A stretch of DNA of 64,000 nt from Escherichia coli. GTDB taxonomy: Bacteria > Pseudomonadota > Gammaproteobacteria > Enterobacterales > Enterobacteriaceae. Numbering within the stretch: position 1 is the stretch's first letter; the number at the start of each line of letters is the position of its first letter. The notes under the pieces were generated by a model, which was not told the DNA's origin, ran no database searches, and was given only the letters and a program-made list of their open reading frames with translations. Both the position numbers and the translations under genes were made by a program. Positions 9,811-64,000 of the stretch are shown one piece after another. The stretch is taken from assembly GCF_003018255.1 (NCBI RefSeq), contig NZ_CP027440.1. The stretch is one strand, 5' to 3'.

Positions 9811-11331
9811 ATGTCCGCAATCACTGAATCTAAACCAACAAGAAGATGGGCAATGCCCGATACGTTGGTGATTATCTTTTTTGTTGCCATTTTAACCAGC
9901 CTTGCCACCTGGGTAGTTCCGGTGGGCATGTTTGACAGTCAGGAAGTGCAGTATCAGGTTGATGGTCAAACAAAAACACGCAAAGTCGTAGATCCACACT
10001 CATTTCGCATTCTGACTAACGAAGCAGGCGAACCTGAGTATCACCGCGTACAGCTGTTCACGACGGGCGATGAACGCCCGGGTCTGATGAACTTCCCGTT
10101 TGAAGGGTTAACCTCAGGATCGAAATACGGGACAGCCGTTGGCATCATCATGTTTATGCTGGTGATTGGCGGCGCGTTTGGCATTGTGATGCGTACAGGA
10201 ACCATTGATAACGGTATCCTGGCGCTTATTCGCCATACCCGCGGAAATGAAATTCTCTTTATTCCTGCGCTCTTTATTCTGTTTTCACTTGGCGGCGCGG
10301 TATTTGGTATGGGAGAAGAGGCCGTCGCCTTTGCCATTATCATCGCACCGCTAATGGTCCGGCTGGGCTATGACAGTATTACCACCGTCCTGGTGACCTA
10401 TATCGCCACGCAAATCGGTTTTGCCAGTTCGTGGATGAACCCGTTTTGTGTGGTTGTTGCTCAGGGGATTGCCGGCGTTCCGGTGCTTTCTGGCTCCGGG
10501 TTGCGCATCGTGGTGTGGGTTATCGCCACTCTGATTGGCCTGATCTTTACCATGGTGTACGCCTCACGAGTGAAAAAGAATCCTCTTCTGTCACGCGTGC
10601 ATGAGTCCGACCGCTTCTTTCGTGAAAAGCAGGCGGATGTTGAACAACGTCCGTTTACCTTTGGTGACTGGCTGGTATTGATTGTCCTGACCGCCGTAAT
10701 GGTCTGGGTGATTTGGGGCGTGATCGTTAATGCCTGGTTTATTCCAGAAATTGCCAGCCAGTTCTTCACCATGGGTCTGGTGATTGGCATCATCGGCGTT
10801 GTTTTCCGCCTTAACGGCATGACGGTTAATACCATGGCTTCATCCTTTACCGAAGGGGCGCGAATGATGATCGCCCCTGCCCTCCTGGTGGGTTTCGCCA
10901 AAGGGATTTTGCTGCTGGTCGGTAATGGTGAAGCGGGTGATGCCAGCGTGTTAAATACCATCCTCAACAGCATTGCCAATGCCATTAGCGGTCTGGATAA
11001 CGCGGTCGCGGCCTGGTTTATGTTGCTCTTCCAGGCGGTATTTAATTTCTTCGTGACATCTGGTTCTGGTCAGGCGGCGTTAACCATGCCGTTACTGGCA
11101 CCGCTTGGCGATCTGGTCGGTGTAAACCGTCAGGTTACCGTTCTGGCGTTCCAGTTTGGTGATGGCTTCAGCCACATCATTTACCCGACCTCAGCTTCGT
11201 TAATGGCAACGCTCGGTGTTTGCCGGGTGGACTTCCGTAACTGGCTGAAGGTGGGCGCGACACTGCTTGGACTGCTGTTTATTATGTCCAGCGTCGTGGT
11301 GATCGGCGCTCAGTTGATGGGCTACCACTAA
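9811..11331 (+). CDS. yfcC: Putative C4-dicarboxylate-type transporter-family membrane protein YfcC
   Basis: ORF track 513 aa from upstream ATG; likely start MSAITESKP (506 aa). Confidence 0.88.
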   Translation: MSAITESKPTRRWAMPDTLVIIFFVAILTSLATWVVPVGMFDSQEVQYQVDGQTKTRKVVDPHSFRILTNEAGEPEYHRVQLFTTGDERPGLMNFPFEGLTSGSKYGTAVGIIMFMLVIGGAFGIVMRTGTIDNGILALIRHTRGNEILFIPALFILFSLGGAVFGMGEEAVAFAIIIAPLMVRLGYDSITTVLVTYIATQIGFASSWMNPFCVVVAQGIAGVPVLSGSGLRIVVWVIATLIGLIFTMVYASRVKKNPLLSRVHESDRFFREKQADVEQRPFTFGDWLVLIVLTAVMVWVIWGVIVNAWFIPEIASQFFTMGLVIGIIGVVFRLNGMTVNTMASSFTEGARMMIAPALLVGFAKGILLLVGNGEAGDASVLNTILNSIANAISGLDNAVAAWFMLLFQAVFNFFVTSGSGQAALTMPLLAPLGDLVGVNRQVTVLAFQFGDGFSHIIYPTSASLMATLGVCRVDFRNWLKVGATLLGLLFIMSSVVVIGAQLMGYH

Positions 11332-41270: not shown

Positions 41271-41822
41271 ATGAAAAAGAAAACAACACTTAGCGAGGAG
41301 GACCAGGCGCTGTTTCGCCAGTTGATGGCGGGGACTCGCAAGATTAAGCAGGACACGATTGTCCACCGACCGCAGCGTAAAAAAATCAGCGAAGTACCGG
41401 TCAAGCGGTTGATTCAGGAGCAGGCCGATGCCAGCCATTATTTTTCCGATGAGTTTCAGCCATTATTAAATACCGAAGGTCCGGTGAAATATGTTCGCCC
41501 GGATGTCAGCCATTTTGAAGCGAAGAAACTGCGGCGCGGTGATTATTCACCGGAGTTGTTTCTTGATTTGCACGGTCTGACGCAGTTGCAAGCCAAACAG
41601 GAACTGGGGGCGTTGATTGCCGCCTGCCGCCGTGAACATGTGTTTTGTGCCTGCGTGATGCATGGTCACGGGAAGCATATTTTGAAGCAGCAAACGCCGC
41701 TGTGGCTGGCGCAGCATCCACATGTAATGGCATTTCACCAGGCACCAAAAGAGTATGGTGGCGATGCGGCTTTGTTGGTGTTGATTGAAGTGGAAGAGTG
41801 GCTGCCGCCTGAATTGCCCTGA
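41271..41822 (+). CDS. smrB: Smr-domain protein SmrB (ribosome rescue endonuclease)
   Basis: 183-aa ORF (YfcN); divergent from prmB. Confidence 0.88.
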
Positions 41823-41937
41823 ATGCTGGCATCGAATGCTGTAGAGGGAAAGTTCGCCTTAGCCATCATATCATAAAACAGACGCCGGAAATGACGACAG
41901 GGCCAGATGGCCCCGTCGACTTGTGAAAATATCGTCA

Positions 41938-42780
41938 CTACAATTCATTCAGTACATACTGGAATCGGCACGTAGAATCAATCGGTTGTCGGCTACTGGT
42001 GTTCACATTTACCACGATATCATGTAGCTGTTTATCGGTTACCGGATGCCGTGTGGGAGAAACCGTTACCGTTGATTTATCGCAACCGTAGGAGGTAAAG
42101 GTTAACAGTTCCGAGACCACGCGGCAGTATGCACCTCTGCTATCAAAAACGCTGCCATCACAGAGTTTGCCATCTTCCATCAGGTAGGTCGAAAGCGTGG
42201 TGGTGATTGTCGAGCCATTGGATTGCAACTGTAACGCCTTATTGTGGCTGACGTAATTCTCACTCCACGAGATGTCATACGACGCGACAGGGATCGTCGG
42301 ACATACTGTGGCATGGTTCGTTGGCCCAGTATATCTCCCGAATCCGGGTTGATCTGTGATCGTATAAAAAGAAGCGAGCCACGGGCAACCATAACTGTCG
42401 GACTGAACGGTTATCTTAAACGTCTCATATGCACACTGAAATGTCGCCGTATTTATCCCAGGACAATTCGAGCTATCAGCATTACCGTAGTCAGTTAAGA
42501 TCAACACTGGCGCTGGTCCCGACCCCGTCCACGAAATAACGCTGGCTTGCTCGTTCTTCCTTATGGCATCGTTGTACACCCCATAGGCCGCCTCGTTGGG
42601 AGTTAACACCGTGACATACAAACCTCCGGTGTTATGAATAGACATTTTCCCCTTCCCATAATAAATCTTCACACTGTCGAAACTCGCGCTGGTGAGTTTA
42701 TCCCCGGCATAGCTCTTTGGAACGCTCGCACTCATCACCAGCAACACCAGGCTCGCAAAAATCATTGTCCATTTTTTCAT
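41938..42780 (-). CDS. yfcO: Yfc fimbrial operon protein YfcO (likely tip/adhesin-like component)
   Basis: ORF track 295 aa; likely start at MKKWTMIFASLVLLV signal peptide; exact start uncertain. Confidence 0.75.
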   Translation of the reverse strand: MKKWTMIFASLVLLVMSASVPKSYAGDKLTSASFDSVKIYYGKGKMSIHNTGGLYVTVLTPNEAAYGVYNDAIRKNEQASVISWTGSGPAPVLILTDYGNADSSNCPGINTATFQCAYETFKITVQSDSYGCPWLASFYTITDQPGFGRYTGPTNHATVCPTIPVASYDISWSENYVSHNKALQLQSNGSTITTTLSTYLMEDGKLCDGSVFDSRGAYCRVVSELLTFTSYGCDKSTVTVSPTRHPVTDKQLHDIVVNVNTSSRQPIDSTCRFQYVLNEL

Positions 42781-42781
42781 G

Positions 42782-43306
42782 TTAAAAATACTCAAAGGTT
42801 GCCGTCGCCGTAGCGCTGAAATCACCGGACGTCACATCCCGCCCGCCCTTCGCCTGTAGCCAGGCATTAAAATTGAGACTGTTATTGCCCTGGTTTAGCG
42901 GGAACGTGACACCCGTTGTGCTGTTGACTGGCACCGCCGCGCCTGCCGCCGTTTCAATACCAATCCCAGCTCCGGATGCAGAAGATGAGGCGTCAAAGGC
43001 CAGAAATCCGGGCAGTTCGCTATCTTCCGTTCCCGTCAGCGTTACCCTGACGCTAAACAGCGTGGAGCTTTTGCAATCCTTCAATTGAAATACCAACGGT
43101 ACTCGCTCTGACTGCCCGAGGTTCATTAAATCGCTGGCGGCAATGGTGGGAAAGTGCACCTCCGCCAACAGGCTACCGTTGATCACTGGCGTACAGGATT
43201 TACCGAGCAAATTACCGGTAAAGTGCAGGTTGTCGACCGCCGGGGCAGTAACGCTGTACAACAGCATCAGGCTACAGATAAAAACCAACGCACGCTTTTT
43301 CTTCAT
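42782..43306 (-). CDS. yfcP: Fimbrial minor subunit YfcP
   Basis: 174-aa ORF with signal peptide, fimbrial-subunit-like C-terminus. Confidence 0.85.
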   Translation of the reverse strand: MKKKRALVFICSLMLLYSVTAPAVDNLHFTGNLLGKSCTPVINGSLLAEVHFPTIAASDLMNLGQSERVPLVFQLKDCKSSTLFSVRVTLTGTEDSELPGFLAFDASSSASGAGIGIETAAGAAVPVNSTTGVTFPLNQGNNSLNFNAWLQAKGGRDVTSGDFSATATATFEYF

Positions 43307-43773
43307 TGATAATCCACCTGTAACGTGGCCCAGGCTTCAAAGTCTGCCTCAGGCAAATCGACACCGCTCTTTTTGACCGGTACTGCGGTTAACACCGGTA
43401 AGGCCGTTTCATTCACCACCAGTGCCGTATTGAGCTTAAAGCTCTGCCCTGCCTGTTTAAGCCGAATCGCCAGGCCAGAGATATCGGTGCTAACCGCGGC
43501 ATCGTCAAAGTCGCTCTGCGTACCGCTCCAGCTCAATTTCATTTCCATTGATGGGTCGCGAACCGCCGTATCACAGGTAATGGAATACGGCACGGTTTGC
43601 TCATAGTTACTGCCATTAATGTCATCAACAAAAACATCCTGAAAGGTTATTTCAATGGTTTTACCGTTGCTAATAGTGCAGTTAGGTGGCTGCACTAAAT
43701 AGCCGTGAAAAGAGACATTTGAGAGTGCCATCGAGCTAAAGCCCCACAGCATAAGAAGTGAGATCCGTTTCAT
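43303..43773 (-). CDS. yfcQ: Fimbrial minor subunit YfcQ
   Basis: 156-aa ORF; signal peptide. Confidence 0.85.
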   Translation of the reverse strand: MKRISLLMLWGFSSMALSNVSFHGYLVQPPNCTISNGKTIEITFQDVFVDDINGSNYEQTVPYSITCDTAVRDPSMEMKLSWSGTQSDFDDAAVSTDISGLAIRLKQAGQSFKLNTALVVNETALPVLTAVPVKKSGVDLPEADFEAWATLQVDYQ

Positions 43774-44276
43774 TGGTAATCCACCACAATTGTGGCACTG
43801 GCGTTAAATTCCGCTGCCGATAAGGTTGTACCACTCTGTTTCACCGGCACTGCTTCGAGTGCAGGGACGCCCGAGGAAAAATTAAACGGCAACCATGAAC
43901 CAGACGTTAAGTCGAGTGTTGAGTGATCACTACTTTTCTGAACCCGAATACCAAACCCTGAAATACCTGTGCTGATAACTGTTTCACCGTTGATCACAAC
44001 CGTTGTTGCCCGCATCTGTAAACGCAGGTCATCCATTGCCAGGTTGTTACAAACAAGCGAGTAATCAATGGGTTGTTTATAACCTACCCCATCGATCTTA
44101 TTGATGAATACATTACCAAACTCAACCGTCGCACCATTAACCGTGCAAGGAGGAGGGGCATCAACGAGCACTCGTAAACTCAAATTTACTGATTTACTCC
44201 CTGCAACTGCAAAGTCGCTACCAATACAACACATCAGTAACCATGTTCCCGCCCAGACTGAACAAGATCTTTTCAT
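43770..44276 (-). CDS. yfcR: Fimbrial minor subunit YfcR
   Basis: 168-aa ORF; signal peptide. Confidence 0.85.
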   Translation of the reverse strand: MKRSCSVWAGTWLLMCCIGSDFAVAGSKSVNLSLRVLVDAPPPCTVNGATVEFGNVFINKIDGVGYKQPIDYSLVCNNLAMDDLRLQMRATTVVINGETVISTGISGFGIRVQKSSDHSTLDLTSGSWLPFNFSSGVPALEAVPVKQSGTTLSAAEFNASATIVVDYQ

Positions 44277-44292
44277 ACTTACTTCCCCGTCA

Positions 44293-45042
44293 TTAACCTT
44301 TGCGGCTCAGCTCTTCATCAACCTGACAACTGTTGCCGCTACAGGTGAAAAAGAGTGGCATCCGTGCGCCATAGTCGTTGACATAGGTCAGCACCGGCAC
44401 GCTAGCCATCTTCACCTTGAGCGGTGCGGAGGTTTTTGGCGACATCACTATCGGCGAGAAACCGTCTGCCGGATTGCCATTTTTTTGCGCGCTGGCATTA
44501 CTGAAAATGACGTAATACGGAGTAGGGTTATTGACGGTAAATTCCTGACCGTTACGGGTTAAGGTCACTTTATGCTGCCATGGGTTTTGCATGCTAGCTT
44601 TTTCCAGGGCTTTAGGTCGCCAGAAAAGTTTGATGCGTGTCTGCAGCGCAATTTGTAACGTATTGGCTTTGTTCGATTTCGGCGGAATTTCACGCACATT
44701 GAAATAAAATATCGATTCACGATCGGCAGGCAATTTATGGATATCTGGCAATCCCTGAATTTTCACCTGACCATTCATCATTGCATCAATGCGCTGTACG
44801 GGGGGCAATACTGCCAGCGGCGAACTAATCTTGACGCCCTTTTCATCTTCGATCCAGCTTTGTGCCAGATAAGGCTGTTTCGGGTCGTTATTACGCAGCG
44901 TGACGCTGATGGATTTATCGCTTTCATTAAAAATCAGGCGAGTACGATCGGGCGTTACTGACGCCAGAGCAGAAAAACTTACCGTTGCAGCCAGTAACGA
45001 CAGTACCGTTGCCAATGTTTTGACAGAGAGATGTTTAGTCAT
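44293..45042 (-). CDS. yfcS: Periplasmic fimbrial chaperone (PapD-like)
   Basis: 249-aa ORF; signal peptide. Confidence 0.9.
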   Translation of the reverse strand: MTKHLSVKTLATVLSLLAATVSFSALASVTPDRTRLIFNESDKSISVTLRNNDPKQPYLAQSWIEDEKGVKISSPLAVLPPVQRIDAMMNGQVKIQGLPDIHKLPADRESIFYFNVREIPPKSNKANTLQIALQTRIKLFWRPKALEKASMQNPWQHKVTLTRNGQEFTVNNPTPYYVIFSNASAQKNGNPADGFSPIVMSPKTSAPLKVKMASVPVLTYVNDYGARMPLFFTCSGNSCQVDEELSRKG

Positions 45043-45061
45043 GGATCATTCCTTAATCACG

Positions 45062-47701
45062 TTATTGGTTCGATGAAACAGACATCGGCGGTTCCATTGG
45101 TGTCACCTGTTGTGTCTGCTCCTGAATTACAGGTTGAATATCATGCGTTATGACGGGAGCACTTCCCCCTTTTTGCTGGCATGGCAACAACAAGCCATTG
45201 AACAGGTCATTCGGTAACGGATCTGGCAGGCTGATATCGCAGTGAGATTCTCCCTCCCAGAAAACGGTCATATGTTCACCCGGCTTAACGCCTGCAAGAT
45301 AAACATTACCTTCGTCATCAACCAGCCCAACTTGTTGTTGATTATCGTTTTTCACTTCCGCCCCAAATGGCGGATGGCTGCCATCCTGCAAGCGCAGCAC
45401 TACCATCGCCTTCTCACCGCTGATCACCGCAAATTTACGGTAGCCAATAGCGCCTTCCGTCAGCGTTGCCTGGACCACCGATTGGGTAGCTTCGGCGTTT
45501 TCCGGTAGTTTGTTCAAATCGATATAAGCCTGGTTACGGTAGTAATCATTAACATCTGCCACCACCGCTTTCCCGAACATGTTGGTATAAACGGCGGAAC
45601 CATTACCTTCGACCGGCACATTAGCAACGCCATCGGCGTCGATTAGCAGACGTGTGCCTCCCATATTTTGCGTACGATGCAACGCCCCGCCGTGAGCAGT
45701 CAGTGTTACACCGCCCTGTAAGGAGACCCCCGCAGATGTGTATTGCCCCTCATGGTAGTTTGCACTCAGGTCAACTTTTGCCAGCGTACCGTCATGACTG
45801 TAATAACCATCAAGACTGGTGTGATTTTCACTGGTTCCGGCGCTCAACGTATAGTGGCTAGCGTCATCGATGCGGTGATACAAACTCGCCTGGCTGCTGT
45901 CGGCACCACTGCCATAATTGCCGTTGTAACTGATGGTGCTGTTGTCACCCCATGGCAAACTCAAGGACAGATAAACACCTTTGTCGGCACTTTTATCATA
46001 TTCGTAGCGATAACCGGTGAGAGAAACGCTCAGGTTGCGAAGACTTCCTAAATTGAAATAATGAGAAAGCATCATGTTGTAGTTGGTCTGATCCTCGCGA
46101 TCCCAATAGGTATGGTGAGAATAATTGAGATAGACCGAAACGCGCGCATCCCTAAAGTTCTGGTTGTAAGTGACCGTGTACATTTCCTTGTCGTTACCCG
46201 TGCGCGCACGGTCGGTGTCGTTCGCATCCAGATACTCACTCATGGTCATGTAGTTTTTTTCAGAGAAGCGATATCCGGCAAACGTCACCCGACTGTTGAG
46301 TTCATCGAAATCTTTGGCATAGCTGACGCGATAAGAGTTGCCGTCCAGCGTTTTGTTGCCATACACGCTGTTATCGTCGAGTTGAACACGAGAGTGAGTG
46401 ACATCAAACGCTAGCGCTCCGAACAGCGCGAGGTCACGACCGAGGCCTAACGCTGCCGACTGGTAGTTTTCATCGGCCAATGCCCCGCCGTAGAGCGACC
46501 AGCCATTCGCAATCCCCCATGACGCCTCACCGCCCGAGAAGAAGCTGCCTGCAACCTGATGGTCCCAGTTTTGTGGACGCCCCATTGTCACTTTGTAACG
46601 CACCTGACCGGGGCGGGTCAGAAACGGCATGGACGCCGTGCTGACGTCATATTCCTGTACCTGACCGTTTTGTTCTTCAATGCGGACATGCAGCGTGCCA
46701 GATACGGAATCGCCAATATCCTGAATGCGGAATGGACCTGCGGGCACCTGGGTTTCGTAAATGACACGGCCCATTTGGGTTACGGTCACTTTAGCGGTAG
46801 TGTGTGCAACGCCGGAAATATCGGGTGCGTAGCCGCGCATGTTTGGCGGTAACATTTGATCATCGGTACTGATGCTGCCGCCAATGTAACTGAAGCCATC
46901 AAAAATATCGGAGTTGAGATAATCTTCACCCAGCGAAAGTTTGGCTTTTAATGACGGCAAGGCGCGCCAGGCGTAGTAACGGCTCCACTCCCAGTTTTTT
47001 TGCGTACCGCTATCATCAGTGTCGCCGTCATCGTTACTGCGGGTATGTTGGTAATCGCTCTGCCAGTCGGCTCGTAAGCGCCACGGCCCCACGTTAACGC
47101 CGACCGTACCATTACCGCTGATGTCGTTAGTGTCATCCCCCCCATTTTCATGTCGGGTTTGTGCGTTGATACTGTAATCGGCAATAAGCCCAGGAATCCC
47201 CTCATCCCAACGCGAAGGTGGGTCCCAGTCATCGTCAGTGTATTCGAGATATGCCTGTGGCACAGAAACTAAGAGCGCAGATTGACTTAAATCGCCCTTA
47301 ATTTCCATACCTCCTATTTGGTCAGTTTTCAGACATTGTCCATCATGACCCCATTGCAAACTCTTCGCAAAATCATCTTTGAAGCCAAACTGGGCTATCA
47401 GTTCAGGTGGTAAGCAGGCATATGATTTATTCGGATCGTTTTCAGCTACATACCAATAGATATCGTATTCATCAGGTAATGGGTGATTATTTACATGAAC
47501 ACGTAAATTGTATTTCCCTGGTTCAACATACCCTTTTTGAGAAAAACGCCCCAGATCAATTTTGGTATTTCCTTTTAACTCCAGAAATCGAGCATCAAAT
47601 TGAATGGTATCATCTGCCAGTACATTAAAAGGACTCCCGGAAATTGCCAGAGCAATCCACCATGAAAGCCCCCGTAAACGAAGAAAAGAATGTTCAGGCA
47701 T
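45062..47701 (-). CDS. yfcU: Outer-membrane fimbrial usher, intact
   Basis: 879-aa uninterrupted ORF; FimD/PapC-like usher; interrupted in K-12. Confidence 0.9.
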   Translation of the reverse strand: MPEHSFLRLRGLSWWIALAISGSPFNVLADDTIQFDARFLELKGNTKIDLGRFSQKGYVEPGKYNLRVHVNNHPLPDEYDIYWYVAENDPNKSYACLPPELIAQFGFKDDFAKSLQWGHDGQCLKTDQIGGMEIKGDLSQSALLVSVPQAYLEYTDDDWDPPSRWDEGIPGLIADYSINAQTRHENGGDDTNDISGNGTVGVNVGPWRLRADWQSDYQHTRSNDDGDTDDSGTQKNWEWSRYYAWRALPSLKAKLSLGEDYLNSDIFDGFSYIGGSISTDDQMLPPNMRGYAPDISGVAHTTAKVTVTQMGRVIYETQVPAGPFRIQDIGDSVSGTLHVRIEEQNGQVQEYDVSTASMPFLTRPGQVRYKVTMGRPQNWDHQVAGSFFSGGEASWGIANGWSLYGGALADENYQSAALGLGRDLALFGALAFDVTHSRVQLDDNSVYGNKTLDGNSYRVSYAKDFDELNSRVTFAGYRFSEKNYMTMSEYLDANDTDRARTGNDKEMYTVTYNQNFRDARVSVYLNYSHHTYWDREDQTNYNMMLSHYFNLGSLRNLSVSLTGYRYEYDKSADKGVYLSLSLPWGDNSTISYNGNYGSGADSSQASLYHRIDDASHYTLSAGTSENHTSLDGYYSHDGTLAKVDLSANYHEGQYTSAGVSLQGGVTLTAHGGALHRTQNMGGTRLLIDADGVANVPVEGNGSAVYTNMFGKAVVADVNDYYRNQAYIDLNKLPENAEATQSVVQATLTEGAIGYRKFAVISGEKAMVVLRLQDGSHPPFGAEVKNDNQQQVGLVDDEGNVYLAGVKPGEHMTVFWEGESHCDISLPDPLPNDLFNGLLLPCQQKGGSAPVITHDIQPVIQEQTQQVTPMEPPMSVSSNQ

Positions 47702-47786
47702 CTACGTATCCATCCATGATTATTATAATTTAGTTATCTTTTATTTATAAACCCCATAACATTGCAGTTATGGGGGAACAGCATAA

Positions 47787-48353
47787 TTAGAGATATGTAA
47801 TCTGGAACGTCGTTAGCGTTTCAAACGGCGCTGGGGTTGGTGTTACCGCTGCAGTTTCACCTACTAACCAGGCTTTAAAGTTCAACGTTTGTTTCTGTTT
47901 GCCTTTTCCTGTTGAACTGTCCATCGCGATGTCCTGATCGATGCCTGCCCCCAGGTCATAACCAGTACCACGTTGGTCGCCAATCACCAGACTTACATTT
48001 GGAATTTCAGTTCCATTATCCATGTTAGACAGGGAATAGTTTTTTGAGTTGCCGGAGTACGGATTACCAGTGAATGTCGTGGTCATTGTCGTTTCAGTAT
48101 TGAAATTACAATCCTGTAAACGAATCTGGAAATCTTTAGGTGTGGTAGTCTTGCCACCGGTTAAAGAACCTGTACCAATGCTGCCCATATCCACTTCCAG
48201 TTTATGATCGTCAGGAACAATCGAGCACGGAGAGTCTTCAATTGTGCCGTAAAATCTCACTGTACCGTTGTTACCTGCGGCAACGACTGATGCTGAAGTC
48301 AGCGCCCCCATGAGCATTGCCGTGGCAACTGCTGCTTTTACAAACTTACTCAT
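47787..48353 (-). CDS. yfcV: Fimbrial major subunit YfcV
   Basis: 188-aa ORF; signal peptide; C-terminal ..TFQITYL donor-strand motif. Confidence 0.88.
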   Translation of the reverse strand: MSKFVKAAVATAMLMGALTSASVVAAGNNGTVRFYGTIEDSPCSIVPDDHKLEVDMGSIGTGSLTGGKTTTPKDFQIRLQDCNFNTETTMTTTFTGNPYSGNSKNYSLSNMDNGTEIPNVSLVIGDQRGTGYDLGAGIDQDIAMDSSTGKGKQKQTLNFKAWLVGETAAVTPTPAPFETLTTFQITYL

Positions 48354-48960
48354 TATTTGTCCTTAAATCATAAATAATTAGAATATAAGCCAACTGAAAT
48401 ATTGACGCAGAGCTTCTTCAATTTTTACAGCGACTTTTAACCAGCCAATGAACAGATTTTCAGCTCCTGAAAAAACAGGTTCCTTGATATAATATTCTTT
48501 GGCGTGCCGAACATATTGATATTTTAATATGACTGACGCAATTTAGATTTTCTAACATTCAAAGTTAGAAATGCTTAATTAATAGGCAGGAATAATAATT
48601 ACTGAAATTTTTCATCTCAATCATGAAGAATAAGTTCAAAAAAACGGCAAATGCAAAAACCCAGTGAATAAATTAAAGTCAAAAACAATCACATGGCAAT
48701 GACTATCTTGTGATATTAATTTCGCAACGATATAATATTAAAACACTATAATTAATATAAAATCAAGACCCAATTATATTTTTCACTTTAGTCATTATTT
48801 ACCTAAAAATGCTTCCAGAAAAATAATTTATGAATAAAAGTAAATTCTCTTTCAATATGTAAATTTTTACAAATAAAAGCGTCATGCCGTATAAAATAAA
48901 GACCATTCGATCACAAGCGGATCATTGTTAGTACAATAAGATTGAATAAATTCAACATTG
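48354..48960 (-). promoter_or_regulatory. AT-rich upstream regulatory region of the yfc fimbrial operon
   Basis: ~600 bp strongly AT-rich non-coding sequence 5' of yfcV; typical of nucleoid-protein-silenced fimbrial promoters. Confidence 0.5.
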
Positions 48961-48961
48961 C

Positions 48962-49000
48962 CAGAAAAAATAAAGGCCCGATAGCTTACGCCAGCGGGCC
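48962..49000 (-). terminator. Rho-independent terminator downstream of sixA
   Basis: hairpin ggcccg..cgggcc followed on minus strand by tttattttttc. Confidence 0.7.
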
Positions 49001-49013
49001 TTGTGCATGCGTA

Positions 49014-49499
49014 TTAAATCGCCTTTGCCATCTTCAAATTACATGGGCTCATCTGCCAGTTAAATGTGCCGTTTCCGCTTTCATCAAGCGTTACGCTGGC
49101 AATGGCCGAGGTGGTAAACATAGGCGGCGTTTCGCCCGGACATAACTCAGCAACCAGATACCCGACTAAGGGTAAGTGGGAGATCACCAGTACCGAAGCA
49201 ACACCTTCATTGGTCAACGCCTGCAAATAGGCACTGACCAGACCAACATCGCCGCAGGGCGTTAACTCCGGCAGAACTTCTGCACTGGAAGGCAGGTTCA
49301 GACAATCCCCTACTTCTTCAAGTGTTTGCTCGGCTCGCAGGAACGGGCTCACCAGAACGCGTTCGATTTCCACTTTTTGACCTTTCAGCCAGTTCGCCAT
49401 CAGGCGAGATTCGTCACAACCGTTAGTGGTCAGAGGACGAACCGAATCACTGGCGGCATCGAGGGCTGCGTCGCCGTGACGCATGATAAAAACTTGCAT
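49014..49499 (-). CDS. sixA: Phosphohistidine phosphatase SixA
   Basis: 161-aa ORF; MQVFIMRHGDA (RHG motif). Confidence 0.94.
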   Translation of the reverse strand: MQVFIMRHGDAALDAASDSVRPLTTNGCDESRLMANWLKGQKVEIERVLVSPFLRAEQTLEEVGDCLNLPSSAEVLPELTPCGDVGLVSAYLQALTNEGVASVLVISHLPLVGYLVAELCPGETPPMFTTSAIASVTLDESGNGTFNWQMSPCNLKMAKAI

Positions 49500-49701
49500 A
49501 TTGCACCGCTTTTGTTAACCAGATTCGCCCGTTTTCTTTCATCTGAAACCAGAGAAAGAAAACGGTGGCCGGCATTGTGCCTTATCCATTCACCGAATGA
49601 AACGCTGTTTTTTACCTCAATGGCGTAAGTATAGTCAATATGCGTTTACATTTTGAGCAACACTCCGCCATTCAGCGCGGATTCATATAGCTTTGACCTT
49701 C

Positions 49702-51846
49702 TTATTGCAGGTCAGTTGCAGTTGTTTTCCAAAAACTTTCCCCACGCTTGCTCATCTCGACTAAACGCTCGCAAGGGGTAAAACGGGAACCATACTGCGT
49801 GGCCAGTCGTTGCATTATTGCAACCACTTCACCCGCACCGAGAGAATCGATGTAGCGGAACGGACCACCGAGAAATGGCGGAAAACCAATGCCAAATACC
49901 GCGCCAATATCTCCGTCACGCACGCTACGGATAACCTGCTCGTCCAGACAACGTACTGCTTCATTCAGCATCAACATCACACACCGTTCAGCTACCTGCG
50001 GTGCGGAGAGTCGCCCCTGCCCTTGTGTGCCAATGAGCGGGTAAATGGCGGGATCGACCTGTTTTTTGCTTTTACGCCCTTTCTGACCATAAAGATAGAA
50101 ACCCCGGCCATTTTTTCTGCCTTTGCGATCGTCGTTCAAAATTGAAGAAACAACATTTGCAGGCGCGCTAAAACGTTCTCCATAAGCGGCTTCCAGTACA
50201 GGAATAATTTTAGTCCCGGTGTCGATTCCTACCTCATCCAAAAGTTGGATTGGGCCTACCGGAAAACCAAATTTCACCAGCGCGGTATCAATGTGCTCTA
50301 CCCGTTCACCTTCGGTCAACATGCGGATAGCTTCATTAATGTAAGGCGCTAAGATGCGATTGACGTAAAACCCGGCTTTGTCACGCACGACAATTGGCGT
50401 TTTGCCCTGTTTTTTCGCCAGTTTTACTGTGGTGGCGATGGTTTGCGCCGATGTACCGGCATGGGGAATAATTTCTACCAACGGCATTTTTTCCACCGGA
50501 CTGAAGAAATGCAGGCCAATAACTTGCTCAGGTCGCGCGGCGTGAGCGGCGATATCGCCAATCGGTAAAGATGACGTGTTCGAAGCAAAGATGGTATGAG
50601 CGGCGCAATTTTGCTCAACTTCCGCCACCATTTGTTGTTTTAATTCGAGATTTTCAAACACCGCTTCAATAATCAGATCGCGATGGGCAAAGCCGCAATA
50701 GTCCGTCGTTCCGGAGATTAATGCCAGCTGTCTGTCACGTTCGCTGGCTTTGAGATGACGACGGCGAACTTTGCCCTCCAGCTGATCCCAACTGTACTTC
50801 AGCGCATGATTTATGCCCTGCGGGTTGATATCTTTAATTCTGACCGGAAGCCCCGCTTTACAAGCAGTGACATAAGCAATACCGCCGCCCATCAAGCCAC
50901 CACCTAAAATTCCCACGCTGTTTAATGGCGCAGGCGGCGCATCACTGCCAGGATCTTTCTTCACGTCCGTACTGGCAAAAAAGATACTACGCAGCGCCTG
51001 CGATTGCGGCGTCATCACCAGTTCGCCAAAAGCACGGGCTTCAGCGTCATAGCCGCCACTGGTGCCCTGCGCTAATCCCGTTTCGACAACCTCCAGGATG
51101 CGTTCTGTCGCCGGATAGTTACCTTGAGTTTTGTGTTCTGTTTTCTTACCGACCATTTTGAACAGCAGCGCACGACCTAACGGCCCCGCCAGAATACGCT
51201 CGCGTACAGGTAGAGGGCGTGAAGATGGGCGATCCTGCTTTGCCAGCTCAACAGCGGCTTCCAGTAAAATGGATTGCGGAACGACGTCATCCACCAGCCC
51301 CAGCTTTAATGCCTGTTTCGCCCGAAGTTGTTTTCCAGTGAGGATCATCTCCAATGCTGTGCTGACACCTATCAGGCGCGGTAAACGCTGGGTGCCGCCT
51401 GAACCGGGTAATAATCCAAGTTGTACTTCAGGCAAACCGAGCACCGTTTTAGGATCGTCAGTACACATGCGACCGTGGCACGCCAGCGCCAACTCCAGCC
51501 CACCGCCCAGGCAAGCGCCATGAATAGCCGCGATAACCGGAACGGGCAAAGCATGAATCTCCGCCATCAACTGTTGGCCCTGCCGCGCCAGTGCTTCCGC
51601 TTCTTGCGCCGTTTTGCAGTTGGCGATCATGTTGATGTCTGCGCCAGCAATGAAGTTGTCTGGTTTCGCGGAGATAAACACCACGCCGCGCAACTCTTTG
51701 TTTTCACGGAGTTGCTTAATAATGGCGCGCACCTGCGAGGCAAACTCCGCCTTCAGGGTATTCATTTTCTCACCCGGTACGTCGATGGTGATAACAGCAA
51801 TGTTGTCCAGACGGACATTAAGGGTAAACGCTGATGCCATTTCCAT
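49702..51846 (-). CDS. fadJ: Anaerobic fatty-acid oxidation multifunctional enzyme (enoyl-CoA hydratase / 3-hydroxyacyl-CoA dehydrogenase)
   Basis: 714-aa ORF. Confidence 0.95.
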
Positions 51847-57376: not shown

Positions 57377-57451
57377 ATGGCGAGGGTTTAAGCAATCGAG
57401 CGGCAGCGTACTTACCCCGCAGTCCATTAGCGGGTATACTCATGCCGCATT

Positions 57452-57526
57452 GTCCTCTTAGTTAAATGGATATAACGAGCCCCTCCTAAGGGCTAATTGC
57501 AGGTTCGATTCCTGCAGGGGACACCA
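57452..57526 (+). tRNA. argW: tRNA-Arg (anticodon CCU)
   Basis: 75-nt sequence read directly, matches argW as recalled; anticodon loop cuCCUaa; ends ..ACACCA. Confidence 0.95.
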
Positions 57527-57646
57527 GATACCCTTCAAACCAAATCTACCTTCACCCCGTAAAAGATGGGTTTGGCAGCACACTTGCCCTATATCTACTC
57601 ATTTTTACTGCAACAGGTTGAAATCTCAGCACTGTCAGAAAGCGCT

Positions 57647-57888
57647 GATGACTAAACAGCCCTGGGCCGGGCGATGTAACCATCATACAGAATCCTGATA
57701 GCGAAATATGGCGTGACTCGATACTTCACTCTGCAATGCATTCCTTGATGAATTCGCAGGCCCGTGATACACGGGACACGTGGCTGAATGACGACAATGT
57801 CCTGGAAATCAGCGAACCGCGTATCCGGAGTACATTTGAGCGACTGTACCAGAACATGAATGAGGCGTTTGGATTAGGTGATTATTAG
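57647..57888 (+). other. Orphan reading-frame fragment of unknown origin
   Basis: open frame of ~79 codons ending ..NDDNVLEISEPRIRSTFERLYQNMNEAFGLGDY*; no convincing start or RBS identified. Confidence 0.3.
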
Positions 57889-57967
57889 CAGGGGTAAGCA
57901 TTTTTGTATTATTATTTTCCGGTTGAGGGATATGGAGATATCGACAACAACCGGAAAAAGTTTACGT

Positions 57968-59215
57968 CTATATTGCTGAAGGTACAGGCGTTTCCATAAC
58001 TATTTGCTCGCGTTTTTTACTCAGGAAGAAAATGCCAAATAGCAACATCAGGCAGACAATACCCGAAATTGCGAAGAAAACTGTCTGGTAGCCTGCGTGG
58101 TCAAAGAGTATCCCAGTCGGCGTTGAAAGCAGCACAATCCCAAGCGAACTGGCAATTTGAAAACCAATCAGAAAGATCGTCGACGACAGGCGCTTATCAA
58201 AGTTTGCCACGCTGTATTTGAAGACGGATATGACACAAAGTGGAACCTCAATGGCATGTAACAGCTTCACTAATGAAATAATCCAGGGGTTAACGAACAG
58301 CGCGCAGGAAAGGATACGCAACGCCATAATCACAACACCGATAAGTAATGCATTTTTTGGCCCTACCCGATTCACAAAGAAAGGAATAATCGCCATGCAC
58401 AGCGCTTCGAGTACCACCTGGAATGAGTTGAGATAACCATACAGGCGCGTTCCTACATCGTGTGATTCGAATAAACCTGCATAAAAGACAGGAAAGAGTT
58501 GTTGATCAAAAATGTTATAGAAAGACCACGTCCCCACAATAAATATGACAAAAACCCAGAAGTTTCGATCCTTGAAAACTGCGATAAAATCCTCTTTTTT
58601 TACCCCTCCCGCATCCGCCGCTATGCACTGGTGATCCTTATCTTTAAAACGCATGTTGATCATCATAAATACAGCGCCAAATAGCGAGACCAACCAGAAG
58701 TTGATATGGGGACTGATACTAAAAAATATACCAGCAAAGAACGCGCCAATAGCATAGCCAAAAGATCCCCAGGCGCGCGCTGTTCCATATTCGAAATGAA
58801 AATTTCGCGCCATTTTTTCGGTGAAGCTGTCAAGCAAACCGCATCCCGCCAGATACCCCAGGCCAAAAAAGAGCGCCCCCAGAATTAGACCTACAGAAAA
58901 ATTGCTTTGCAGTAACGGTTCATAAACGTAAATCATAAACGGTCCGGTCAAGACCAGAATGAAACTCATACACCAGATGAGCGGTTTCTTCAGACCGAGT
59001 TTATCCTGAACGATGCCGTAGAACATCATAAATAGAATGCTGGTAAACTGGTTGACCGAATAAAGTGTACCTAATTCCGTCCCTGTTAATCCTAGATGTC
59101 CTTTCAGCCAAATAGCGTATAACGACCACCACAGCGACCAGGAAATAAAAAAGAGAAATGAGTAACTGGATGCAAAACGATAGTACGCATTTCTGAATGG
59201 AATATTCAGTGCCAT
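57968..59215 (-). CDS. cscB: Sucrose:H+ symporter (MFS)
   Basis: 415-aa ORF; MALNIPFRNAYYRFASSYSFLFF.. recognised as CscB. Confidence 0.93.
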   Translation of the reverse strand: MALNIPFRNAYYRFASSYSFLFFISWSLWWSLYAIWLKGHLGLTGTELGTLYSVNQFTSILFMMFYGIVQDKLGLKKPLIWCMSFILVLTGPFMIYVYEPLLQSNFSVGLILGALFFGLGYLAGCGLLDSFTEKMARNFHFEYGTARAWGSFGYAIGAFFAGIFFSISPHINFWLVSLFGAVFMMINMRFKDKDHQCIAADAGGVKKEDFIAVFKDRNFWVFVIFIVGTWSFYNIFDQQLFPVFYAGLFESHDVGTRLYGYLNSFQVVLEALCMAIIPFFVNRVGPKNALLIGVVIMALRILSCALFVNPWIISLVKLLHAIEVPLCVISVFKYSVANFDKRLSSTIFLIGFQIASSLGIVLLSTPTGILFDHAGYQTVFFAISGIVCLMLLFGIFFLSKKREQIVMETPVPSAI

Positions 59216-59286
59216 AATTACCTGCCTGTCGTTAAAAAATTCATGTCCTATTTAGAGATAAGAGCGGCCTCGCCGTTTACTTCTCA

Positions 59287-60201
59287 CTATTCCAGTTCTT
59301 GTCGACATGGCAGCGCTGTCATCGCCCCTTTCGCCGTTACTGCAAGCGCTCCGCAACGTTGAGCGAGATCGATAATTCGTCGCATTTCTCTTTCATCTGT
59401 AGATAATCCCGTAGAGGACAGACCTGTGAGTAACCCGGCAACGAACGCATCTCCCGCCCCCGTGCTATCGACACAATTCACAGACATTCCAGCAAAATGG
59501 TGAACTTGTCCTCGATAACAGACCACCACCCCTTCTGCACCTTTAGTCACCAACAGCATGGCGATCTCATACTCTTTTGCCAGGGCGCATATATCCCAAT
59601 CGTTCTGTGTTTTTCCACTGATAAGTCGCCATTCTTCTTCCGAGAGCTTGACGACATCCGCCAGTTGTAGCGCCTGCCGCAAACACAAGCGGAGCAAATG
59701 CTCGTCTTGCCATAGATCTTCACGAATATTGGGATCGAAGCTGACAAAACCTCCGGCATGCCGGATCGCCGTCATCGCAGTAAATGCGCTGGTACGCGAA
59801 GGCTCGGCAGACAACGCAATTGAACAGAGATGTAACCATTCGCCATGTCGCCAGCAGGGCAAGTCTGTCGTCTCTAAAAAAAGATCGGCACTGGGGCGGA
59901 CCATAAACGTAAATGAACGTTCTCCTTGATCGTTCAGATCGACAAGCACCGTGGATGTCCGGTGCCATTCATCTTGCTTCAGATACGTGATATCGACACC
60001 CTCAGTTAGCAGCGTTCTTTGCATTAACGCACCAAAAGGATCATCACCGACCCGACCTATAAACCCACTTGTTCCGCCTAATCTGGCGATTCCCACCGCA
60101 ACGTTAGCTGGCGCGCCGCCAGGACAAGGTAGTAGCCGCCCGTCTGATTCTGGCAAGAGATCTACGACCGCATCCCCTAAAACCCATACTTTGGCTGACA
60201 T
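59287..60201 (-). CDS. cscK: Fructokinase (PfkB family)
   Basis: 304-aa ORF; ribokinase-family motifs (..DSTGAGDAF..). Confidence 0.9.
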   Translation of the reverse strand: MSAKVWVLGDAVVDLLPESDGRLLPCPGGAPANVAVGIARLGGTSGFIGRVGDDPFGALMQRTLLTEGVDITYLKQDEWHRTSTVLVDLNDQGERSFTFMVRPSADLFLETTDLPCWRHGEWLHLCSIALSAEPSRTSAFTAMTAIRHAGGFVSFDPNIREDLWQDEHLLRLCLRQALQLADVVKLSEEEWRLISGKTQNDWDICALAKEYEIAMLLVTKGAEGVVVCYRGQVHHFAGMSVNCVDSTGAGDAFVAGLLTGLSSTGLSTDEREMRRIIDLAQRCGALAVTAKGAMTALPCRQELE

Positions 60202-60306
60202 TTTTTTCCCTTAAATTCATCTGACTTACGCATAGTGATAAACCTCTTTTTCGCAAAATCGTCATGGATTTACTAAAACATGCATATTCGATCACAAAAC
60301 GTCATA

Positions 60307-60318
60307 GTTAACGTTAAC
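60307..60318. promoter_or_regulatory. Putative CscR operator 1 (perfect 12-bp palindrome)
   Basis: gttaacgttaac in the cscK-cscA divergent intergenic region. Confidence 0.5.
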
Positions 60319-60370
60319 ATTTGTGATATTCATCGCATTTATGAAAGTAAGGGACTTTATTTTTATAAAA

Positions 60371-60382
60371 GTTAACGTTAAC
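60371..60382. promoter_or_regulatory. Putative CscR operator 2 (same 12-bp palindrome)
   Basis: second exact copy of gttaacgttaac, 64 bp from the first, ~35 bp upstream of cscA start. Confidence 0.5.
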
Positions 60383-60416
60383 AATTCACCCAATTTGCTT
60401 AACCAGGATGATAAAA

Positions 60417-61850
60417 ATGACGCAATCTCGATTACATGCGGCGCAAAACGCACTAGCAAAACTTCACGAGCGCCGAGGTAACACTTTCTATCCCCATTTT
60501 CACCTCGCGCCTCCCGCCGGGTGGATGAACGATCCAAACGGCCTAATCTGGTTTAACGATCGTTATCACGCGTTTTATCAACATCACCCGATGAGCGAAC
60601 ACTGGGGGCCAATGCACTGGGGACATGCCACCAGCGACGATATGATCCACTGGCAGCATGAGCCTATTGCGCTAGCGCCAGGAGACGAGAATGACAAAGA
60701 CGGGTGTTTTTCAGGTAGTGCTGTCGATGACAATGGTGTCCTCTCACTTATCTACACCGGACACGTCTGGCTCGATGGTGCAGGTAATGACGATGCAATT
60801 CGCGAAGTACAATGTCTGGCTACCAGTCGGGATGGTATTCATTTCGAGAAACAGGGTGTGATCCTCACTCCACCAGAAGGCATCATGCACTTCCGCGATC
60901 CTAAAGTGTGGCGTGAAGCCGACACATGGTGGATGGTAGTCGGGGCGAAAGATCCAGGCAACACGGGGCAGATCCTGCTTTATCGCGGCAGTTCATTGCG
61001 TGAATGGACTTTCGATCGCGTACTGGCCCACGCTGATGCGGGTGAAAGCTATATGTGGGAATGTCCGGACTTTTTCAGCCTTGGCGATCAGCATTATCTG
61101 ATGTTTTCCCCGCAGGGAATGAATGCCGAGGGATACAGTTACCGAAATCGCTTTCAAAGTGGCGTAATACCCGGAATGTGGTCGCCAGGACGACTTTTTG
61201 CACAATCCGGGCATTTTACTGAACTTGATAGCGGGCATGACTTTTATGCACCACAAAGCTTTTTAGCGAAGGATGGTCGGCGTATTGTTATCGGCTGGAT
61301 GGATATGTGGGAATCGCCAATGCCCTCAAAACGTGAAGGCTGGGCAGGCTGCATGACGCTGGCGCGCGAGCTATCAGAGAGCAATGGCAAACTTCTACAA
61401 CGCCCGGTACACGAAGCTGAGTCGTTACGCCAGCAGCATCAATCTATCTCTCCCCGCACAATCAGCAATAAATATGTTTTGCAGGAAAACGCGCAAGCAG
61501 TTGAGATTCAGCTGCAGTGGGCGTTGAAGAACAGTGATGCCGAACATTACGGATTACAGCTCGGCACTGGAATGCGGCTGTATATTGATAACCAATCTGA
61601 GCGACTTGTTTTGTGGCGGTATTACCCACACGAGAATTTAGATGGCTACCGTAGTATTCCCCTCCCGCAGGGTGACATGCTCGCCCTAAGGATATTTATC
61701 GATACATCATCCGTGGAAGTATTTATTAACGACGGGGAGGCGGTGATGAGTAGCCGAATATATCCGCAGCCAGAAGAACGGGAACTGTCGCTCTATGCCT
61801 CCCACGGAGTGGCTGTGCTGCAACATGGAGCACTCTGGCAACTGGGTTAA
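60417..61850 (+). CDS. cscA: Sucrose-6-phosphate hydrolase / invertase (GH32)
   Basis: 477 aa from MTQSRLHAAQN..; GH32 N-terminal motif WMNDPNG. Confidence 0.93.
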   Translation: MTQSRLHAAQNALAKLHERRGNTFYPHFHLAPPAGWMNDPNGLIWFNDRYHAFYQHHPMSEHWGPMHWGHATSDDMIHWQHEPIALAPGDENDKDGCFSGSAVDDNGVLSLIYTGHVWLDGAGNDDAIREVQCLATSRDGIHFEKQGVILTPPEGIMHFRDPKVWREADTWWMVVGAKDPGNTGQILLYRGSSLREWTFDRVLAHADAGESYMWECPDFFSLGDQHYLMFSPQGMNAEGYSYRNRFQSGVIPGMWSPGRLFAQSGHFTELDSGHDFYAPQSFLAKDGRRIVIGWMDMWESPMPSKREGWAGCMTLARELSESNGKLLQRPVHEAESLRQQHQSISPRTISNKYVLQENAQAVEIQLQWALKNSDAEHYGLQLGTGMRLYIDNQSERLVLWRYYPHENLDGYRSIPLPQGDMLALRIFIDTSSVEVFINDGEAVMSSRIYPQPEERELSLYASHGVAVLQHGALWQLG

Positions 61851-61857
61851 CATAATA

Positions 61858-62853
61858 TCAGGTGGAACAACGGATCAACAGCGGGCAAGGGATCCGCGTC
61901 ACTCTTCCCCCTTCACGATCTTCAATAATATGCAATGCAGCTTCCCGCCCGATAATGTCATGTGGAAGCTGAATTGTGGTCAGCGGCGGTAAAAACAGAT
62001 GCCCGACGCCAACCAGATTATCAAAGCCCATTACGGCGACATCCTGCGGGATACGTACCCCCTTCGCCAGGAGAACCTGATAAGCGACAAAGGCTGCGCG
62101 ATCGTTACCACATATCAGAACATCAAAATCTGGTTTGCCCGATTTGAAGTGGTCATTGAGTAAACTTGCGAGATCGGTGTAGTGATCATCACCTGTTGCC
62201 ATGTGAAATTGTTTCACCTCAGCCAGATCTCGTCCAGCATCACGCCAGGCCTGCTCAAATCCCTGCCGACGATACCCTGTTGCCAACGCACTTTCCGGTA
62301 GCCAGAAGCATAACGGTTGACGATAGCCCGCCGCGAGCAAATGCTGTGTTGATTCATATTGTGCAGTGTAATCATCAGGGATATAACTGGGTAACGCTGG
62401 GTCATCCGCCACACAGTTCGCCAATACAATATTTTCACCATACAGAGACTCAGGCAGCGAGATATGTCGCAGCCCCATTGTAGTATAGATAATGCCATCC
62501 GGACGGTGGGCAAGCAGCTGACGTGCCGCGCGGGCAGCGTCATCTTCAGAAAAAATATTGATTAAAAAACTATTCCAGCCAAACTCGCTGGCGGTTTGCT
62601 CAATGGCAAGCAGAATATCAACAGAGAAAGGAGTGGTGGCCGTGTCCTGCGCCAGCACGGCGAGAGTCGACGGCTTACGTCCTTGAGCGCGCATCTTACG
62701 GGCGGAAAGATCAGGAACATAATTCAGGGTCTGGATTGCCTGCAATACGCGGTCACGCGTTGCAGGACGCACAGATTCTGCATTATGCATCACCCGGGAG
62801 ACTGTCATCATCGACACTCCCGCCAGGCGTGCGACATCCTTTAATGAAGCCAT
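61858..62853 (-). CDS. cscR: LacI-family sucrose operon repressor
   Basis: 332 aa from MASLKDVARLAGVSMMTVSRV (HTH); ORF track over-extended upstream to 63051. Confidence 0.9.
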   Translation of the reverse strand: MASLKDVARLAGVSMMTVSRVMHNAESVRPATRDRVLQAIQTLNYVPDLSARKMRAQGRKPSTLAVLAQDTATTPFSVDILLAIEQTASEFGWNSFLINIFSEDDAARAARQLLAHRPDGIIYTTMGLRHISLPESLYGENIVLANCVADDPALPSYIPDDYTAQYESTQHLLAAGYRQPLCFWLPESALATGYRRQGFEQAWRDAGRDLAEVKQFHMATGDDHYTDLASLLNDHFKSGKPDFDVLICGNDRAAFVAYQVLLAKGVRIPQDVAVMGFDNLVGVGHLFLPPLTTIQLPHDIIGREAALHIIEDREGGRVTRIPCPLLIRCST

Positions 62854-63095
62854 ACCCAAGCCGTTTGCCGTAAAACGGGCACTGTAGCAGAAACAGACGT
62901 CACTGGCGAGATCCAACGATATTCTCAACGCCCTATCACCCGACACGGCAATACAATAAAAAATAACAATAATTCCCGGACAATTGTACCCAATTCCGCC
63001 TCTGTTCTCGCCAACGAGTAACCATGTAGGCAAGTAGGTAAAACATGCCAACTGGCATCGCCAACCTGGAGAAGAAAATATAAATATGGATCATT

Positions 63096-63314
63096 GTGCT
63101 GCCGCTGTATCCCGACATCAGTCCGGAAATTATTGCGATTGCTATCGGTTCAGGTGCGATTGGCTGCACGATCGTTACGGACTCGCTTTTCTGGCTGGTG
63201 AAGCAATATTGCGGCGCTACGCTCAATGAAACATTTAAATACTATACGACAGCGACATTTATCGCTTCAGTCGTCGCTCTGGCGGGCACATTCCTGCTGT
63301 CATTTATCATCTAA
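63096..63314 (+). pseudogene. dsdX: 3' remnant of D-serine transporter gene dsdX (last ~72 codons)
   Basis: translation ..[71 protein letters not shown] matches DsdX C-terminus; no N-terminal part upstream. Confidence 0.85.
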
Positions 63315-63331
63315 GCGCAAAGAGACGTACT

Positions 63332-64000
63332 ATGGAAAACGCTAAAATGAACTCGCTCATCGCCCAGTATCCGTTGGTAAAGGATCTGGTTGCTCTTAAA
63401 GAAACCACCTGGTTTAATCCTGGCACGACCTCATTGGCTGAAGGTTTACCTTATGTTGGCCTGACCGAACAGGATGTTCAGGACGCCCATGCGCGCTTAT
63501 CCCGTTTTGCACCCTATCTGGCAAAAGCATTTCCTGAAACTGCTGCTACTGGGGGGATTATTGAATCAGAACTGGTTGCCATTCCGGCTATGCAAAAACG
63601 GCTGGAAAAGGAATATCAACAACCGATCAGCGGGCAACTGCTACTGAAAAAAGATAGCCATTTGCCCATTTCCGGCTCCATAAAAGCACGCGGCGGGATT
63701 TATGAAGTCCTGGCACATGCAGAAAAACTGGCTCTGGAAGCGGGGTTGCTGACGCTTGAAGATGACTACAGCAAACTGCTTTCTCCGGAGTTTAAACAGT
63801 TCTTTAGTCAATACAGCATTGCTGTGGGCTCAACCGGAAATCTGGGGTTATCAATCGGCATTATGAGCGCCCGCATTGGCTTTAAGGTGACAGTACATAT
63901 GTCTGCTGATGCCCGGGCATGGAAAAAAGCGAAACTGCGCAGCCATGGCGTTACGGTCGTGGAATATGAGCAAGATTATGGTGTTGCAGTCGAGGAAGGA
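63332..64000 (+). CDS. dsdA: D-serine dehydratase (5' partial; continues past window end)
   Basis: [31 protein letters not shown]..; PLP-lysine region ..SGSIKARGG. Confidence 0.95.

Follow-up and report, generated by a model that had tools for sequence, protein, structure and literature searches.

The AT-rich sixA–yfcV spacer of Escherichia coli, a probable H-NS-silenced control region of the cryptic yfc fimbrial operon

The sixA–yfcV spacer and its neighbourhood

In the 64-kb stretch of E. coli DNA analysed here (referred to as the window throughout), a 660-bp spacer at positions 48354-49013 lies between sixA (49014..49499) and yfcV (47787..48353), the latter encoding the major fimbrial subunit and representing the first gene of the yfc operon. 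Both flanking genes are located on the minus strand, with sixA as the upstream gene. Gene calls were carried over from strain 104, a chicken isolate whose identity to the window is 99.5% overall and 100% within the spacer. The original prediction had delimited a 660-bp region upstream of yfcV, and its limits coincide exactly with the ends of yfcV and sixA; it had also described this region as the longest non-coding stretch of the window, in agreement with the transferred gene calls, according to which the spacer is the longest intergenic gap in the 64 kb and the fadL-yfcZ gap (371 bp) is the runner-up.

The base composition of the spacer sets it apart from its surroundings. Its GC content is 29.4%, versus 51.0% for the 64-kb window, and the GC minimum for a segment of 660 bp falls at 48316-48975 (28.2%)—confirming the spacer as the most AT-rich part of the window, as had been proposed. 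The second-lowest 660-bp segment (47262-47921, 39.5%) adjoins this minimum on the left, where it runs over the end of the usher gene into yfcV; elsewhere in the 64 kb, the lowest value is 41.5%. Moreover, TpA steps occur at a frequency of 0.10 in the spacer versus 0.044 in the window, and 20 A/T tracts of four or more nucleotides are present. Both in its AT content and in its TpA steps and A/T tracts, the spacer thus has the composition used to recognize H-NS-silenced regulatory DNA.

The statement that the region holds only ORFs of 10-14 codons had to be corrected, as five mechanically called ORFs of 23-35 aa lie wholly within the spacer on the minus strand. None of these small ORFs is kept in position or sequence across the allele classes described below and, since no ORF is conserved between classes, the designation of the spacer as non-coding holds.

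Two further features of the neighbourhood were recorded. The usher gene of the yfc operon (45062-47701, minus strand) is intact and encodes 879 aa; the corresponding K-12 gene, yfcU, carries a pseudogene annotation. At the right end of the window (~57450-64000), the annotation of strain 104 places a truncated dsdX and a sucrose-utilisation set, made up of cscA, a LacI-family regulator, a kinase and an MFS transporter, beside a tRNA-Arg gene, at a site that is occupied in CFT073 by the ipuA/ipuB invertases and the UpaE adhesin.

We also counted promoter-like and H-NS-like motifs in the spacer. By a simple consensus rule (promoter islands, in comparison, are defined by the PlatProm algorithm), seven sigma70-like matches were found on the two strands together. 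Their density of 10.6 per kb, versus 0.73 per kb across the window, is the highest in the window and 14 times its average. Composition-matched shuffles of the spacer give 4.0 ± 1.9 promoter-like sites, which places the observed seven ~1.6 standard deviations above the expectation. The high-affinity nucleation motif of H-NS is tCGATAAATT, or TCGATATATT at the proU site. Six matches to this 10-mer occur in the spacer, versus 7.8 ± 2.9 expected from composition; there is hence no enrichment of the motif in the spacer count, in which the best match has two mismatches and none has fewer. Both the motif counts and the density of promoter-like sites follow from AT-richness, and neither is therefore independent evidence for silencing.

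Anatomy of the spacer along the minus strand

Read along the minus strand, the spacer begins with the intrinsic terminator of sixA (48963..49002), formed by a hairpin (49002..48973) followed by UUUAUUUUUU. In RNA folding, the hairpin reaches -21.3 kcal/mol (z = -2.7), and the same element was recovered as inverted repeat I10. The rightmost ~50 bp of the spacer belong to this terminator and not to the yfc control region. Next, from ~48960 to ~48780, comes a distal zone of ~180 bp of AT-rich DNA that is unalignable between alleles, and of which ~100 bp are missing in the B2 allele.

A sigma70 promoter for yfcV is predicted at 48745..48773 on the minus strand, ~390 nt upstream of the ATG, with TTGGGT (48773..48768) and TATAGT (48750..48745) separated by a 17-nt spacer. 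Its position in this allele was assigned by alignment to the K-12 promoter TTGAAA-17-TATAGT, which lies 384 nt upstream of the K-12 yfcV ATG (10031-10059 of the K-12 record, L003) and aligns with 48745-48773 of the window; the K-12 hexamers were themselves picked by sequence near a low-resolution SELEX peak and not by transcription-start mapping. The -35 element TTGGGT of this allele is weaker than the TTGAAA of K-12, and the E-type and B2 alleles do not retain the -10 element.

Just downstream of the predicted promoter sits a near-invariant block, AATATTATATCG in the minus-strand reading (48728..48742), conserved in all six aligned allele classes; the invariant AATATTATAT (48742..48728) is kept in all alleles aligned. 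Within this block, the minus strand reads TATTAT at 48737..48732, and the plus strand reads TATAAT at 48731-48736. The block also resembles the H-NS site of proU at 8/10 positions, and the best H-NS motif candidate of the spacer, ACGATATAAT at 48727-48736, falls within it. The plus-strand TATAAT is accompanied by TTGTGA at 48708-48713, 17 bp upstream, for a promoter-like score of 10/12. Together with the minus-strand promoter, this arrangement means that promoter-like elements of the two strands face and overlap each other.

The same plus-strand element (TTGTGA-17-TATAAT, 48708-48736) is the candidate start, directed towards sixA, of an independent gene hidden in the spacer, be it for a small protein or for a small or antisense RNA. 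Most aligned allele classes retain the -10 TATAAT (B2 has TTTAAT), TTGnnA occurs 17-18 bp upstream of it in the three alleles inspected, and ORFs of up to 35 aa are available. However, no ORF is conserved between allele classes, the alleles cannot be aligned beyond the plus-strand promoter, and no terminator is present on that strand. Nothing is annotated in this position in K-12 or in the other records compared, and no Rfam match rises above its gathering score: the scan of 47000-50000 against Rfam 15 at E <= 1 gave a single match, BjrC68 (E = 0.14; 18.7 bits versus a gathering score of 39), which lies on the sixA terminator and reflects that hairpin only. Dense promoter-like sites on both strands are, in addition, the expected signature of a promoter island (PMC3661553). 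We consequently regard an independent gene in the spacer as very unlikely.

Between 48728 and 48392, identity between alleles is moderate and several conserved blocks stand out. One of these, ATTAATTAA..TCTA..AG.A..TAAATTG (48536..48583, minus strand), comprises in this allele the palindrome TTCTAAC-N7-GTTAGAA at 48550-48570 (repeat I1). Conserved block F is followed by TATAAA in the K-12, O157/E. whittamii-like, B2 and Pseudocitrobacter alleles, and by TTAAAA in the present allele and in the 06-00048/E69-type allele. Operator half-sites or promoter elements are equally plausible readings of the conserved blocks. A likeness of conserved block E to an RcsAB box was dropped from consideration since it is inconsistent across alleles.

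A conserved inverted repeat (48441..48506, minus strand) is found ~90-150 nt upstream of the yfcV start codon, with the arms CACGCCAAAGAATA (48506..48493) and TGTTCATTGGCTGG (48454..48441) enclosing a variable inner hairpin. The repeat is a candidate for a 5'-UTR stem-loop or for a pair of operators. In most other alleles, the inner hairpin contains one GATC (-103 to -115 relative to the ATG); this GATC is missing in the present allele (GGAGC) and in B2. The spacer ends in a near-invariant leader and translation start region (48354..48392, minus strand), with the Shine-Dalgarno sequence AAGGA at 48364..48360 and the ATG at 48353..48351. These 39 nt are ~100% conserved over all allele classes, as opposed to 51-69% identity in the rest of the spacer, and are near-invariant in Pseudocitrobacter vendiensis too.

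These elements bring up another explanation, namely that the spacer acts as a long structured 5' UTR in which the inverted repeat 48506..48441 would fold into a stem-loop and the 39-nt leader would serve as a binding site for a regulator or a small RNA. Such control of yfcV after transcription could add to silencing by H-NS. A leader of ~385 nt would indeed result from the predicted promoter, the 39-nt leader is kept even in Pseudocitrobacter, and the same outer helix appears in the minimum free energy folds computed separately for six alleles that elsewhere share 51-69% identity. RNAalifold also places this helix in its consensus structures, both for 4 and for 11 sequences, the repeat is present in Pseudocitrobacter as well, and two variable paired positions change from A-U to G-U, a substitution tolerated in sense-strand RNA only. 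Several results count against a structured leader, though. The fold z-scores range from -0.6 to -2.1, and 18/200 shuffles of the present allele fold equally well; the 39-nt leader itself is predicted to be unstructured (z = +0.85). No pair displays a two-sided compensatory change; paired positions carry four substitutions, two of which leave a wobble pair and two of which abolish pairing. Furthermore, some alleles show an equally good or better fold on the antisense strand, Rfam yields no match for the element, and our literature search found no relevant report linking yfcV to Hfq or to a small RNA. The inverted repeat may also not be transcribed. On balance, a regulatory 5' UTR appears rather improbable as the explanation for this spacer.

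Allelic diversity of the yfc locus

To place the spacer in a population context, we searched 5426 complete E. coli genomes. The present allele, at an identity of at least 95%, was found in 634/5426, including APEC O78:H4 strains and EAEC 042 (96.5% identity). The K-12-type query found matches in 3531 genomes; in 3073 of these the match spanned 80% or more of the query, and ~400 (O157 and related) gave partial matches only. The CFT073/B2-type spacer was found in 1227. Together, the three query alleles account for 5392/5426 complete genomes, a figure in which the K-12 query includes the partial O157-type matches. Counted with further species representatives, there are at least six spacer allele classes, which are 51-69% identical in pairwise comparison; as judged without a control alignment, this would be little above the level expected of unrelated AT-rich sequences. 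Despite such divergence, all four spacer alleles measured have a GC content of 26-32%, which suggests that base composition is maintained across alleles, either by selection or by mutational bias. The conservation of composition, short blocks and layout, but not of sequence, fits a composition-dependent binder such as H-NS.

The divergence extends beyond the spacer. Compared with K-12, the yfc operon and the spacer form a hyperdivergent block (~41822-49017) whose edges are sharp, on the left towards smrB and on the right at the stop codon of sixA. Identity to K-12 amounts to 96.7% from 49018 rightwards and, on the smrB side, to 95% left of ~41822. Between these limits it drops to 68-75% in the yfc genes, and the spacer cannot be aligned by blastn. 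At the protein level, YfcV is 67% and SixA 100% identical to K-12. This pattern is also in line with the report that regulatory spacers bound by H-NS evolve faster (PMC4720273), but the divergence observed here is far above that described there, and is probably the product of an ancient allele replacement of the whole yfc locus.

Additional observations concern the distribution of individual alleles. Over the 175 nt that precede yfcV, O157:H7 and O145 (L018/L019) are identical to each other and to Escherichia sp. E1V33 (L010), and E. whittamii (L009) is nearly so; this identity suggests that the allele crosses species boundaries, through either old polymorphism or recombination. In Pseudocitrobacter vendiensis (L012), where 167 nt could be compared, a 25-mer at the yfcV start and conserved blocks up to ~160 nt upstream were recognized. 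A 2.2-kb contig of a metagenome-assembled genome assigned to Collinsella sp. (L011, JAIJJM010000567.1) is 97% identical to the present spacer allele, most likely as a result of E. coli contamination of the bin. Finally, E. coli LR-24 (H71, NZ_AP027494.1, 2451849-2453304) carries an IS1 inside a K-12-type spacer.

The genome survey also bears on the possibility of a phase-variation switch in the spacer, either an invertible segment of the fimS type or a Dam/Lrp-dependent element of the pap type. Phase-variation switches are common upstream of fimbrial operons, and the spacer contains both the imperfect inverted repeats I2 (48363-48379 / 48822-48838, 442 nt apart and 82% complementary) and two GATC sites (48909 and 48920). 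Yet these repeats are low-complexity AT sequence, are not conserved, and have one arm in the unalignable distal part. The GATC pair, located in the distal zone, is separated by 11 bp versus ~102 bp in the pap type, is likewise not conserved and is absent from the B2 allele. Within the 64 kb, neither a tyrosine recombinase nor a papI/papB-like gene is annotated. Phase-variable invertible segments are normally found in both orientations across assemblies. Here, 633/634 genomes with the present allele match it at full length in one collinear piece, the K-12-type and B2-type alleles are nearly all full-length too (the one multi-piece match inspected is an IS1 insertion), and no inverted form exists among the genomes matched. 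This single orientation across genomes effectively refutes an invertible switch, and a switch of any of these types is extremely unlikely; the earlier remark that no inverted-repeat switch boundaries are apparent is in keeping with the imperfect repeats, the missing recombinase and the collinearity of 633/634 genomes. In the type 1 fimbrial system, 9-bp inverted repeats mark both ends of fimS, which is inverted by the adjacent recombinases FimB and FimE. The yfc spacer is similar to fimS in that both are AT-rich and precede a fimbrial major-subunit gene, and fimS (fimE/fimA) is likewise listed as H-NS-bound (PMC3661553); it differs from fimS in that it comes with no recombinase, no conserved bounding repeats and, across 634 genomes, no inverted form—observations on which the invertible switch was largely rejected.

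The K-12 counterpart and silencing by H-NS

Since the flanking genes and the conserved blocks are shared with K-12, the spacer is orthologous by position to the K-12 sixA–yfcV spacer, for which published data exist. The latter was listed by Panyukov and Ozoline (2013) as promoter island 2453647_489 yfcV(-)/sixA(-), one of 78 (PMC3661553, Table 1), and is marked there as H-NS-bound (column H = 'K') according to the ChIP-seq data of Kahramanoglou for MG1655 and the ChIP-chip data of Oshima for W3110. We mapped this island to the proximal ~466 bp of the K-12 spacer, which align with the window from 48354 to ~48780; the mapping is our own coordinate conversion and assumes an offset of 1977 bp between genome versions. 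After this conversion, the sigma70-holoenzyme 'constitutive promoter' TTGAAA-17-TATAGT, assigned to yfcV by genomic SELEX and flagged HNS (Shimada 2014, PMC3946193), falls inside the coordinates of the island. An RpoS (sigmaS)-holoenzyme SELEX peak was reported in the same K-12 spacer (Shimada 2017, PMC5493296), and the K-12 spacer binds both sigma70 and sigmaS RNA polymerase in vitro (PMC3946193, PMC5493296). A peak reported for CsiR by ChIP in this spacer (PMC5217608) was set aside, as it involved an overproduced factor and a 1.9-fold effect.

The spacer analysed here and the K-12 island resemble each other in several respects. They lie between the same two genes, have similar lengths (660 bp here and 680 bp in K-12) and GC contents (29.4% here and 31.9% in K-12), and share conserved blocks that include the TATAGT -10 element and the ribosome-binding region. 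They differ in sequence, at 54-60% identity, in the -35 element (TTGGGT here, TTGAAA in K-12) and in the usher gene, intact here and a pseudogene in K-12. H-NS and RNA polymerase binding were measured on the K-12 allele only, and we infer the occupancy of the present allele by both from this counterpart.

The yfc locus is not alone in this organization. Many chaperone-usher fimbriae of commensal E. coli are described as cryptic and H-NS-repressed in the survey of Wurpel 2013 (PMC3559732), citing Korea 2010; the same account presents the products of the yad, yeh and yfc genes as functional but cryptic organelles, and other cryptic chaperone-usher operons thus share this description with yfc. 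H-NS-bound promoter islands also precede the fimbrial major-subunit genes at yadN/folK, folD/sfmA, ybgD/gltA, yehD/yehE, ssuE/elfA and agaI/yraH (PMC3661553), although these are separate loci with sequences unrelated to that of the yfc spacer. By analogy, the spacer would represent an already known kind of element, i.e., the H-NS-bound, AT-rich 'promoter island' of a cryptic fimbrial operon.

We therefore consider it highly probable, by analogy with K-12, that the cryptic yfc chaperone-usher operon is controlled in cis by this spacer and that H-NS keeps the spacer silent. The original prediction had named silencing by nucleoid proteins as the most likely role of the region; this interpretation matches the published K-12 counterpart and draws its support from the listing of that counterpart among the H-NS-bound promoter islands in Table 1 of PMC3661553. 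In the arrangement that we propose, the sixA terminator would be followed by ~180 bp of unconserved AT-rich DNA, a promoter zone ~390 bp upstream of yfcV and a leader/operator zone of ~380 bp, the latter being AT-rich, with a few conserved blocks, and ending in the invariant ribosome-binding region. With its 70% AT, its TpA steps and its A/T tracts, this DNA would offer a platform for the nucleation of H-NS and its spreading over the promoter. RNA polymerase would still bind, while productive transcription would stay low—the behaviour of a 'promoter island'. Expression of yfc would then require counter-silencing. Two inductions have been published: overproduction of TosR, a regulator of the PapB family, induces yfcV in CFT073 (log2 FC 5.2; PMC5956150), and so does overproduction of BolA in E. 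coli (PMC4337573).

A more speculative extension, to which we give a low probability, is that the surviving blocks (the inverted repeat 48506..48441, AATATTATAT and the 39-nt leader) form a previously undescribed yfc control module that operates on top of H-NS silencing. This putative module may be common to at least six allele classes and to Pseudocitrobacter, and may take the form of, e.g., a 5'-UTR stem-loop or paired operators.

For the most part, the present analysis means little beyond confirmation, as the region conforms to what control DNA upstream of cryptic fimbrial genes should look like. The yfcV gene widely serves as a marker for uropathogenic E. coli. The control region of this marker comes in at least six deeply diverged alleles, all of those measured being AT-rich, in which a few short blocks have been kept. 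These conserved blocks offer concrete targets for mutation in the search for what turns the yfc fimbriae on.
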